This document shows positions 15,009-18,225 of a stretch of 64,000 bases of DNA, piece by piece (within the stretch, counting starts at the first letter, position 1; the number at the start of each line of letters is the position of its first letter). Below the pieces are notes generated by a model. That model ran no database searches, was not told where the DNA came from, and saw only the letters and a program-made list of their open reading frames with translations. This DNA comes from Acidobacteriota bacterium (GTDB taxonomy: Bacteria; Acidobacteriota; UBA6911): NCBI GenBank assembly GCA_963664705.1, contig OY761556.1:2272001-2336000 (forward strand), written 5' to 3'. The position numbers and the translations under genes were made by a program.

Positions 15009-15431
15009 CTATTCGCCGATGAGTTTGATCATGATGCGTTTTCTGCGGCCGCCGTCAAACTCGCCGTAAAAGATCTGCTCCCATGGTCCGAAATCCAATT
15101 TGCCATTGGTGATGGCGACGACGACCTCGCGACCCATGATCTGCCTTTTGTGATGAGCGTCGCCGTTGTCTTCGCCGGTTCGGTTGTGATGGTATCGCTG
15201 CGGGCTGGGATCAAAAGGAGCCAGGGCTTCAAGCCAGCGAGCATAATCTTCATGCAGTCCAGGCTCATCGTCATTGATGAAAACGCTTGCCGTAATATGC
15301 ATTGCATTGACAAGTGCCAGGCCCTCCTTGATGCCGCTGTCCCGGAGCGCCTCCTGCACATGTCCCGTGATATTTAAAAACGCCATGCGCGTAGGCAGGT
15401 TGACCTCGATCACTTTGCGATAACTCTTCAT
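15009..15431 (-). CDS. yjbQ: YjbQ/UPF0047 family protein (secondary thiamine-phosphate synthase)
   Basis: [41 protein letters not shown] 15431 preceded by a GAGGTGG RBS. Confidence 0.92.
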
Positions 15432-15513
15432 TTTCCACCTCGCTGCAAAAACCAGACGGTCTCCATTATAGCGGGCCTGTAGTAAAAAAAATCGGAAGCT
15501 TTGTGCCATTCGT

Positions 15514-15572
15514 GGCAATTGGTGGCTGCTTTTTGGCGACGAAGCTAAAGCAAGCCTGCAATCCGCTCCGCG
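15514..15572. repeat. Left copy of a perfect 59-bp direct repeat (apparent target duplication)
   Basis: GGCAATTGGTGGCTGCTTTTTGGCGACGAAGCTAAAGCAAGCCTGCAATCCGCTCCGCG, identical to 17112-17170. Confidence 0.95.
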
Positions 15573-17111
15573 AGAAAATCTGGAAAAATCTGAAAAAATC
15601 TGGACACCCACAAAAAATCTGGACACCCACTATTTTTGAATATTTCTTCGCTCAATTCCCATGGTTCGCCATTAGTAACTATGCAAGGAGGCAAACCATG
15701 GGATTGGCAAGAAACAACTATGTCATCGAAGGGGAGGAAGGTGTTTATCACTGCATCAGCCGATGCGTCCGCAGAGCTTATCTTTGCGGATATGACCCGC
15801 TTAGCGGCCGGGACTTCTCCCATCGAAAAAAATGGATTCTCGATCGCTTGAAACATCTTGCCGGCATCTTCGCCATCGACGTATGCGCTTACGCCATCAT
15901 GGAAAACCACGTGCATTCCATCTTGCGCACTCGACCCGACATTCTTCGCTCCTGGTCTGATTCCGATGTCGCCGCTCGCTGGCTTGAGCTCTGCCCCAGG
16001 AAACCTCGCATCTGCAAACAACCCATTCCTTCTCTAGATAAACAGATCCAGGCATTAATCGATTGTCCGGAACGTATTGCTGTTCTGCGCAAGCGGCTGG
16101 GCAGCCTGAGTTGGTTCATGTCCAAATTCAATGAATTCATCGCGCGTAAGGCCAACAACGAAGACAAGGTCAAGCGCCGCTTCTGGGAATCCCGCTTCAA
16201 ATGCCAGGCACTCCTGGATCTCTTCGCTATTGTAGCCTGCATGGTCTATGTTGATCTGAATCTGGTCCGGACCGGCATTGCTCCCACTCCCGAGGACAGT
16301 GACTTCACTAGCATCCAGGAGCGTATCCGCGCCTGGCATTGCCAAACCTTAGCCCAGCAACCGGCCTCTCAACCCGGTGATTCGGATCCGGCTTCCGATC
16401 ACTCTCCTCTCGAAACCGCTTCCGACAGCTGGCTTTCTCCTATTCAGTCAACCCCCAGCCGACGGGGCATTCTCGACATAACCGCAGCTGAATATTTTGA
16501 TCTGGTCGACCAATCGGGACGCATGATTCGCTCTGATAAGCCCGGCTTCATCGACGCCCGCCTTGCCCCTATCCTGAATCGCATCGGAGCCGTTCCCAAG
16601 GGATGGAGGGAAAGCGTATCGCATTTTGGTTCCACATTCCTGCTAGCCGCCGGCAGTCTGACTCACATGCGTGAATTCGCGGCCCGGTTCAACCGACATT
16701 GGTTCAAGGGTTTGTCAGCCGCTCGAGCGGCTTTCATATAACCTTAAGGATAATCACATTCCAGATCAATAGGATCTGATCTAACCCAATCTACGCATCT
16801 CTTCTAGATTCCGTGATTCCTCCTCGCAATAATTTTGTCCGCCCGACTCCAGCAGAATAGCCAAGCCGGTCACAAGACCGTACTCCAACTTGTCGTAATG
16901 GTCCCTAAAGTGCCGGTCGCCCGATCGATGTCTTGCCTTCGTAGCAGGCTTAAGAACGGGGCAAGGGAAATAACGACGGATGTCCAAGTCTTCTCCCGGT
17001 TTTTCAGGTTTTTTTCGGCATGGGGGATCATGGGGAGCCAGGAATTCGATTTTGGGCAAATCATGGGTGTCCAGGTTTAGCCAGGTTTAGATGGGTGTCC
17101 AGGTTTAGGGC
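15573..17111 (+). mobile_element. Y1 HUH-transposase element with reiterated terminal inverted repeats, flanked by 59-bp direct repeats
   Basis: CTGGACACCCA at 15600 and 15619; its reverse complement TGGGTGTCCAG at 17064 and 17092. A single transposase ORF lies between them. Confidence 0.8.
15698..16741 (+). CDS. Y1 HUH tyrosine transposase (RAYT/TnpA-REP-like)
   Basis: AGGAGG RBS. YHCISRCVRRAYLCG, HUH motif AYAIMENHVH, FWESRFK, catalytic Tyr in MVYVDLN, SDFTSIQERI. Confidence 0.9.
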   Translation: MGLARNNYVIEGEEGVYHCISRCVRRAYLCGYDPLSGRDFSHRKKWILDRLKHLAGIFAIDVCAYAIMENHVHSILRTRPDILRSWSDSDVAARWLELCPRKPRICKQPIPSLDKQIQALIDCPERIAVLRKRLGSLSWFMSKFNEFIARKANNEDKVKRRFWESRFKCQALLDLFAIVACMVYVDLNLVRTGIAPTPEDSDFTSIQERIRAWHCQTLAQQPASQPGDSDPASDHSPLETASDSWLSPIQSTPSRRGILDITAAEYFDLVDQSGRMIRSDKPGFIDARLAPILNRIGAVPKGWRESVSHFGSTFLLAAGSLTHMREFAARFNRHWFKGLSAARAAFI

Positions 17112-17170
17112 GGCAATTGGTGGCTGCTTTTTGGCGACGAAGCTAAAGCAAGCCTGCAATCCGCTCCGCG
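17112..17170. repeat. Right copy of the 59-bp direct repeat; contains the 3' end and stop codon of the glycosyltransferase gene
   Basis: Identical to 15514-15572; the minus strand encodes ...AERIAGLL*. Confidence 0.95.
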
Positions 17171-18225
17171 GCGATGCAGTCGCCGCCGGCGCTCAAATCC
17201 GATGGAGGCTCCGGCCGGCTCCAGATCGATTCCAGGCTCTCCCGAAGATTGCCCTCGTACAGCTTTTCCGCGGGAATGTGCAGATGCTTCATATACTTTC
17301 TTATGGATGCCTCGAGGATTGGATATTCGCGAAAATGACTTCGGTCGGCATAAATCAAAGGCTTCCGGTTCACGATGCAGTCGGAGAGGATGCCGAAACC
17401 TGGCTTGGATATCACCGCATCTACCGAAGCAATTGCATCCGAAAATGTCATTTGCTCGCGGCTGATGGCATGAATGTTCCTTCGATGCCATTCCAGCGGA
17501 AGAACCGTAATGAATTCGCAATCCTGAATGCGTTCCACGCGATCCAGCGTTTCTTCACTCCAATCCAGGGTCGTAAATGAAAGGAGGATCCACCTCTTGC
17601 GCTCGTCACAGCCCGTCGCCGCCGCAATTTCGGAACGGCGTGCAATGCCCGGAGAGGCAACCAGCGGAATATCCTCAATGCGTGGAAAAGCCTCCATCTC
17701 CTCGCAGAAAGGAAGACGCAACAGGAGACTCGTCTGTCTGTATTGTTCCTGGAACATTTTGACAACCGGTTCCCAGGCAGCATCACGGGGTACGAATTCC
17801 GAATAAATCCAATCCCAGCCGAAATTGCCCACAGCGATGGAAGGGATTCCCTTGCGAGCCGCAGCCTCGATCGGAATCCCAGGGATATCGGCCACCACTG
17901 CGGCAATCCGATTCGCGGTAAGGAATTCCGATTCTATTTGCACAAGCTCATTCCGCCGATGCCCAATGTGCGAGATTTTCCCAAGGGTGGCGTCGATATC
18001 CACTCGAATGGAGTCCAGTTGAACCATCCCGACATCATAAGATTCGGCGCGAATGGGATTTCGCGTCGAATCCGCCTGATTTGCGATGAAGGCGGCGGGC
18101 AACTGGCTGACGATATGGACAGTCCAATCCGGATACAGCCGGTTGATGGCCCGGATGATGCTGCAGGAGCGCACACCGTGTCCATAGCCATGCGACGTTA
18201 TGTAATAAGCGATGGAAGGAGGCAT
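17143..18225 (-). CDS. GT-B fold glycosyltransferase-like protein (L-arabinokinase N-terminal type)
   Basis: YYITSHGYGHGVRS, VVADIP, NFGWDWIY, VISKPGFG..SDC, FREYP. Confidence 0.8.
   Translation of the reverse strand: MPPSIAYYITSHGYGHGVRSCSIIRAINRLYPDWTVHIVSQLPAAFIANQADSTRNPIRAESYDVGMVQLDSIRVDIDATLGKISHIGHRRNELVQIESEFLTANRIAAVVADIPGIPIEAAARKGIPSIAVGNFGWDWIYSEFVPRDAAWEPVVKMFQEQYRQTSLLLRLPFCEEMEAFPRIEDIPLVASPGIARRSEIAAATGCDERKRWILLSFTTLDWSEETLDRVERIQDCEFITVLPLEWHRRNIHAISREQMTFSDAIASVDAVISKPGFGILSDCIVNRKPLIYADRSHFREYPILEASIRKYMKHLHIPAEKLYEGNLRESLESIWSRPEPPSDLSAGGDCIAAERIAGLL

Follow-up and report, generated by a model that had tools for sequence, protein, structure and literature searches.

Two published descriptions come close to the element analyzed here, the TnpA-Y1 protein subclass 2.3 (Quentin et al. 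2018, PMC6006769) and the TIRtrons or TIRYTs, in which a tyrosine transposase lies between terminal inverted repeats (TIRs), as it does here (Di Nocera et al. 2013, PMC3733652). The protein subclass and the TIR-flanked tyrosine transposases are thus already published. The portions of these two naming papers that describe the groups give no mechanism for the movement of inverted-end Y1/HUH elements (PMC6006769, PMC3733652), and the 26 TIRtron examples considered by Quentin et al. are placed in subclasses 2.1, 2.2 and 2.5, not in 2.3 (PMC6006769). The words 'target site' and 'duplication' are absent from the main text of the TIRtron paper, whose Figure 9 or supplements could show tandem ends (PMC3733652). 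Cleavage by HUH enzymes yields a 5'-phosphotyrosine and a free 3'-OH, and for the addition of BIME units Ton-Hoang et al. proposed a series of nicking, extension, recutting and rejoining (their Fig. 7B; PMC3333891). A literature search of titles and abstracts, with subscription journals mostly outside its coverage, found none on reiterated tips of such elements.

The window, a stretch of 64,000 nucleotides from an Acidobacteriota genome, contains an element of about 1.5 kb in which a Y1/HUH transposase gene lies between inverted GGACACCCA cores. At both ends the terminal repeat is reiterated as a run of full and truncated units, referred to here as a stutter; re-reading of the sequence bears out the units as first described, and a repeat scan finds the cores to be 93% complementary over 15 nt, in keeping with the 14 of 15 matching core positions noted originally. 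The extent of 15573 to 17111 given in the original prediction holds on the left, while on the right the stutter stops at 17108 and is followed by a flank-like GGC. A perfect 59-bp direct repeat bracketing the element had gone unmentioned. The parts of the locus are as follows:

15514..15572, + strand: left copy of the 59-bp target duplication, a perfect direct repeat of host DNA
15573..15611, + strand: left outer stutter, two units truncated at the core start and one 19-nt unit
15573-15583, + strand: left unit AG-AAAATCTGG
15584-15592, + strand: left unit AAAAATCTG
15593-15611, + strand: left unit AAAAAATCTGGACACCCAC, a 19-mer
15612..15630, + strand: innermost left end, arm AAAAAATCT and core GGACACCCA (core at 15621-15629), repeating the 19-mer of 15593-15611
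15698..16741, + strand: 347-aa Y1/HUH transposase with the TnpA-Y1 subclass 2.3 signature (H71-V-H73, W163, Y184)
16977..17047, - strand: degenerate right-end remnants within the element, a GGATGTCC core with a short stutter and a second, decayed core-like word; probably older ends of the element
17063..17080, - strand: innermost current right end, arm CTAAACCT and core GGACACCCA, an 18-nt full unit
17081..17108, - strand: right outer stutter, a 10-nt truncated unit (17081-17090) and an 18-nt full unit (17091-17108)
17109..17111, + strand: 3-nt filler GGC, identical to the first 3 nt of the right flank
17112..17170, + strand: right (original) copy of the 59-bp target duplication, overlapping the stop of the gene at 17143-18225 (- strand)

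The window element and its transposase

The host repeat at 15514-15572 includes the terminal codons and the stop of a glycosyltransferase-like gene whose C-terminus, as seen in the repeat, is kept in relatives. Since the conserved last codons of the gene lie within it, the 59-bp repeat is duplicated host DNA. One of 11 loci from relatives (L123) has no element between the two genes: there, yjbQ follows 78 nt downstream of the glycosyltransferase-like gene, both pointing the same way. Two further loci have yjbQ sequence adjacent in another arrangement and eight show no yjbQ in the locus. The left core is located 76 nt upstream of the ATG in six of the nine full copies of the element in this genome and 88 nt upstream in the other three. 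A hairpin at 15657-15703 spans the ribosome-binding site and the ATG of the window copy. Folding, which was confined to left ends, revealed no consensus structure in 22 aligned ends, either as a hairpin over the ribosome-binding site or of the REP type, and the repeat scan of the window element returned no self-complementary end repeat.

The 347-residue transposase carries the motifs NHVH, FWE, YVDLNL and FTS, with H73 and Y184 separated by 111 residues. The family consensus for the third motif is YVDLNP, and a change of the proline to L or M is common to all nine genome copies. By motifs and length the protein fits subclass 2.3, for which the sections on this subclass report a median of 325 aa, the motifs NHxH, WE, YVDLN[P/L] and TS, an insertion between HUH and Y, a long C-terminal tail and several copies per genome, all of them with counterparts in the window protein and its family (PMC6006769). 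It falls below the cut-off for Pfam Y1_Tnp, a profile that recognizes 63 of the 123 family members (E<=0.01), and scores 26.5 against a cut-off of 80 for NF047646. At least 90% of 123 homologs retain H71, H73 and Y184, and the enzyme is predicted to carry out HUH catalytic chemistry, namely 5'-phosphotyrosine cleavage and strand transfer. The window copy itself may be impaired, because R160 and T192 replace a nearly invariant G and A that its sister copies keep.

A structure model built from 123 sequences (pLDDT 93.4), superseding an earlier one from 24 sequences (pLDDT 58.8), has E. coli TnpA-REP (4ER8) as its top fold match (Z 13.7, rmsd 2.8 over 159 residues), followed by IS608/IS200 TnpA, and above Z 6 the fold searches return only Y1 transposases. 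The next matches are Thg1-like 3'-5' polymerases at Z 5.5-5.8, which probably lies within the range of a shared palm fold and is not evidence for a polymerase domain; none was seen in the transposase by these searches. For the C-terminal 110 residues all atlas matches stayed below 0.9, and sequence searches of solved structures with the transposase gave nothing significant. The protein family comprises 1,110 clusters at 50% identity (E<=1e-30); among the best 80 of 587 matches the closest titled relatives are Acidobacteriota, the more distant ones Gammaproteobacteria and Planctomycetota.

Stutters across copies, relatives and mini-elements

The stutter in the window is confirmed as real and not an artefact of assembly. 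Run X5 (study P3) yields contigs over 15406-15648 and 16979-17135, and run X2 (study P2) one over 16516-17141, each with 0 differing letters, while one X2 contig has an extra A at 15611 (depth 2 of 8.7). This support for the locus comes from assembled contigs, not raw reads (the raw run X7, sampled at about 4%, placed 0 reads), either X2 or X5 is possibly the source sample of the window, and the support for the other copies consists of loose ends only. Subterminal repeats are common in DDE transposons. That the reiterated ends are nothing but fixed subterminal binding sites, or an artefact at a locus seen in contigs and not in raw reads, is nevertheless hardly credible: nine of nine copies differ, the contigs of the two studies are identical and isolate replicons show the pattern, the complete replicons L032 and L034 with long duplications.

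The host genome contains nine full copies and one truncated copy of the element. Across the 18 ends of the full copies the number of units ranges from 1 to 7 with differing truncations, and no two ends are alike. Identical fixed ends, which the original prediction had named as the observation speaking against it, are not what is found, as all nine copies differ at their ends, and unit number and truncation points vary even among copies that are 98.7-99.2% identical. Copies 2 and 3 (98.7%), 4 and 5 (99.0%) and 7 to 9 (99.0-99.2%) reside at unrelated loci, and the sequences indicate that the element is mobile as a unit. Copies 1-6 form mosaics that switch sharply between one another's sequences; the window copy matches copies 2 and 3 up to about its middle and departs from them thereafter, and copy 6 combines the ORF of copies 4 and 5 with a different right-end region. 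By eye, tRNA-like genes adjoin copies 3, 6 and 9 as well as the elements at L005 and L029. At copy 2, where loss of a host gene was considered, comparison with six relatives shows upstream regions that are not conserved. Copy 10 (G000:C1:4158782-4159300, L134) has a stuttered left end and the first 130 codons but no right end, and continues through a short duplication into a second left-type end followed by unrelated DNA; it looks like an aborted unit of about 490 nt.

Stuttering is family-wide. After removal of six duplicates the family set consists of 117 elements, with 160 ends that have a recognizable core and enough flank. A strict parser finds at least two units at 73 of these ends and a single unit at 87, against a background of 53 in 3,000 random positions and 20 in 1,632 partial-core sites of the same genome; it misses some stutters, such as those at both ends of copy 2. 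Stuttered ends make up 12 of 18 in the host genome, 34 of 65 in close relatives and 27 of 77 in other groups, counts that are descriptive only, as the elements are mutually related and the locus sample (best 80 of 587) is skewed to close relatives. Several solo GGACACCCA sites appeared by eye to be chance matches in coding DNA and were excluded from the end counts.

The same stutter occurs on mini-elements, two inverted cores about 27-165 bp apart with no transposase gene, of which 12 were examined; stuttering therefore likely acts in trans. One mini-element family of about 37 bp has similar filler between its inverted cores (G000:C1:1320210-1320440, 3307384-3307420 and 4447370-4447408), and two of these three sites lie between imperfect direct repeats of 91-110 bp. 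Other core-containing structures in the genome comprise outward-facing cores around GC-rich hairpin repeats (G000:C1:1429444-1429944), a 251-bp tandem unit containing the core and repeated about 2.5 times (G000:C1:1489200-1489900), and an extended degenerate array whose 6-7-nt units, GGACGTT/GGACGAT-like, are interleaved with a mini-element left end (G000:C1:1362800-1363010). At L028 a subterminal region of left-end type recurs, inverted, at the right end, as though the ends had been exchanged.

A regular target duplication of fixed length was considered and rejected: abutting direct repeats of at least 8 nt flank 2 of 61 two-ended elements (59 and 8 bp), compared with 27 of 1,000 shuffled pairs. 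With mismatches allowed, a 109-bp repeat (88%) is found at L039 and repeats of 91-239 bp (80-97%) at four of the 12 mini-element rows, one cluster accounting for two of the four. Some of these mismatched repeats may pre-date the insertion; the clean target duplication is the 59-bp case in the window.

Geometry and source of the duplicated units

To describe the duplications we number positions relative to the core, with the G of GACA as 0. Strong conservation at the ends is confined to GGACA(C/T)CCA, the arm at -9 to -2 being looser, and inverted cores of this sequence are present at the left in 86 and at the right in 83 of the 117 elements. Among 487 exact matches outside the innermost core, for which no polarity was assumed, 136 start at -10 to -7, and the end points fall mostly at -1 to +1 (100 matches) or +7/+8 (67); inward of the core, a start at -10 to -7 is seen in just 12 of 195 matches. 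Adjacent unit pairs (147, from 67 ends) stop at -2 to +1, where the core begins on its outer side, in 100 cases and at +6 to +9, shortly beyond the core, in 25. Perfect adjacent duplications number 71, three triplications being counted twice, and 56 of them are 9-12 nt long. The best single start coordinate, -9, fits 31 of the 71, the bulk being spread over about -12 to -7, and overall the duplications begin some 7-14 nt outside the core. Sixteen long duplications (25-153 bp) follow suit, 13 of them starting at -9 to -14. No fixed start dinucleotide such as C|T was seen by eye in the 71 duplications. The start looks like a zone set by distance from the core, within 2-3 nt either way, and not like a fixed base. 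Of the proposal that all units begin at one outer boundary, the one-sided polarity is thus retained, and family-wide, whereas the single fixed site is not.

The junctions between units divide evenly: 74 of 147 contain no unexplained bases and 73 contain 1-20 extra bases, which are 66% purine compared with 49% in the flanks. Zero microhomology is found in 36 of the 71 perfect duplications (51%), close to the 52% of a random-cut simulation, and microhomology of at least 2 nt in 23 (32%, simulated 17%), an excess that stems partly from triplications. Slippage or template switching by a host polymerase that meets a protein block on the core, the transposase having no part in resealing, would account for stop points clustered at the core edges, for purine-rich extras at half of the junctions and for the excess of short microhomologies, partly triplication-derived as it is. 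It appears quite unlikely to us all the same, given that the share of duplications with zero microhomology equals that of random cutting and that units of up to 153 bp hold the same start register.

The sharp 9-12-nt period and the lack of microhomology would also suit cutting of both strands about one helical turn apart at the element's own end, followed by fill-in and rejoining to leave an 'empty target duplication'. This reading requires a second-strand cut at the core edge, and units of 15-153 nt misfit a fixed stagger. Ku, moreover, was found in only two of 30 genomes of the genus and in one of five other genomes with such loci, and we regard staggered cutting as very unlikely. The host genome has one reverse transcriptase domain and one Ku gene (G000:C1:5755642-5756289 and 5478966-5479508), neither of them near an element. 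Because Ku is present in the host genome but in only so few of its genus, NHEJ is unlikely to be required; a requirement for Ku-dependent repair was likewise rejected on these counts, which include incomplete genomes where absence is unproven. No Ku was found in the 99%-complete genome G014, which has a nine-unit end at L004.

The copied bases appear to be local. Left and right arms of one element agree at 3.6 of 6 positions, compared with 2.4 of 6 for random pairs, and of 109 arms from outer full units 74 are nearer to their own end, 21 to the opposite end and 14 are tied. In 118 of 147 unit pairs at least one pre-arm base is shared, and these are junction bases private to that end. Outer units differ from their own inner unit at +4 in 14 of 101 cases where both ends agree, and at +8 in 31 of 77. 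Copying from the opposite end is unsupported, since +8 varies even where both ends agree. The description of the ends as telomere-like probably suits their appearance alone. As for telomerase-like addition, the repeat differs at every end and mostly copies local bases; the fold searches, with Y1 transposases alone above Z 6, leave room for a hidden polymerase activity in the transposase.

Orthologous insertions differ in their stutters. At L015 and L059 both flanks are 96-97% identical, and at the right end one of the pair has duplicated 34 nt, its own flank variant included, and the other 9 nt. L033 and L034 (flanks 81-88%) likewise differ, and the stutter of L012 is unlike those of L013 and L014, which are the same. 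These differences support the view that ends change after insertion. The original suggestion that ends may grow with each event is upheld as regards change but not as regards growth, gain and loss being inseparable in orthologous pairs: the differences could alternatively reflect a longer ancestral stutter that has lost units, or separate insertions into one hotspot. L045, at a different locus, has inner units in common with L015/L059, which together with the decayed cores of the window copy suggests that old units are carried along in later moves.

These shared inner units would equally be expected if stutters were made only at insertion, by serial joining of 5'-linked ends at the target, most attempts being aborted after a few bases, with new elements also entering old ends. 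The degenerate older ends inside the right end of the window copy, the partial-ORF unit of copy 10 with its fresh left-type end and the identical appearance of the window locus in runs of two studies would fit as well. Both the private junction bases shared by units of one end and the differences between orthologous insertions speak against this explanation, which we judge unlikely.

A model for the stutter and its relation to known systems

We lean, by a modest degree, towards reading the stutters as re-copies of the tips made in place by nicking, extension by a host polymerase and resealing. In this reading the Y1 enzyme has its predicted binding site at the GGACACCCA core and would nick about 7-12 nt outside it; as in HUH cleavage generally, the element side would then carry a 5'-phosphotyrosine and the flank a 3'-OH. 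A host polymerase would extend the freed flank 3' end into the element and stall where protein occupies the core, so that most units would measure 9-12 nt and some 25-153 nt. The new 3' end would next attack the tyrosine-linked displaced 5' end and the enzyme would reseal the strand. A duplication formed in this way would start at the nick, end where copying ended and show no microhomology, and stalling or slipping before resealing would add extra purine-rich bases. Each stutter would represent an aborted start of transposition. In a completed event both ends would act as inward-facing origins whose 5' ends are transferred to a target 3'-OH on opposite strands; a target duplication of set size would not result, although long ones, like that of 59 bp, would arise now and then.

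The repeated nick-and-rejoin originally put forward for the HUH enzyme is retained here in so far as joining occurs without microhomology; by itself, nicking and rejoining creates no duplicate DNA, so that copying has to come in as a further step. In favor of the proposal are copy-specific, one-sided duplications at both inverted ends, in a register that is tied to the core and not to sequence, together with the two favored stop points, joining that can do without microhomology, stutters that differ between orthologous insertions and like scars on mini-elements lacking a transposase. The scars, from which the putative cut site is deduced, predict cleavage of the inward-running strand between about -12 and -7 relative to the core. 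Simple resealing leaves the purine-rich extra bases and the unfaithful outer units unexplained.

More tentatively, and with more doubt than confidence, subclass 2.3 may constitute a distinct transposition class: double-ended HUH transposons, each of whose two ends serves as an inward-facing, rolling-circle-like origin. The enzyme would bind a 9-bp duplex core, nick any sequence about one helical turn outside as if by a ruler and pass the 5' ends to a free 3'-OH. The tip duplications, in place and in trans at mini-elements, would be a cumulative record of aborted transposition, accompanied by occasional target duplications of 60-240 bp. If true, nicking by distance from a short duplex motif, and not at a hairpin-guided sequence, would be a new behavior for the HUH fold.

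Within the account of subclass 2.3, no flanking REP-like structures are reported and no ends are given, whereas the window family has inverted cores and stutters (PMC6006769). The free TIRs of TIRtrons, described as dimers and clusters in the genome, are like the mini-elements here; the window core CTGGACAC in part resembles the GGGGWSAS shared by some TIRtrons but differs from it (PMC3733652). The invariant GGACAC fits the last six positions of that motif, the two preceding bases being mostly CT, not GG.

E. coli TnpA-REP with its REP-BIME system has the closest solved fold (4ER8), and the model put forward for it adds tandem units by nicking, host extension and rejoining to the 5'-phosphotyrosine (PMC3333891). 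TnpA-REP needs a REP hairpin with GTAG and cuts C|T, while the starts in the window family have no common dinucleotide; REPtrons are portrayed in the parts of that paper concerned with them as low in copy number and not moving as a unit, in contrast to the multicopy window element with its nine full copies of up to 99.2% identity (PMC3333891). REP hairpins with a GTAG/CGTC foot flanking the gene were not encountered in the window element. The IS200/IS605 elements IS608 and ISDra2 have the Y1/HUH fold in common with the window transposase, but are described as having subterminal hairpins, no terminal inverted repeats and no target duplication (PMC3333891). Their TnpA of about 150 aa carries a Y---Q motif, as opposed to 347 aa, Y--LN, TIRs and a 59-bp duplication here.

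Replitron-1 of Chlamydomonas, also an HUH element, shows fuzzy ends derived from the donor flank and target duplications of variable length (Craig 2023, PMC10288648). It differs in being eukaryotic and of another Rep lineage, with direct terminal repeats, a fuzzy end on one side and an RG target, and its treatment in the relevant sections of that paper includes no tandem re-copying (PMC10288648). To these systems the window adds an active multicopy family, a true 59-bp target duplication and tests of microhomology and of orthologous insertions, and its scars may be a natural footprint of the nick-extend-rejoin amplification proposed for BIMEs.
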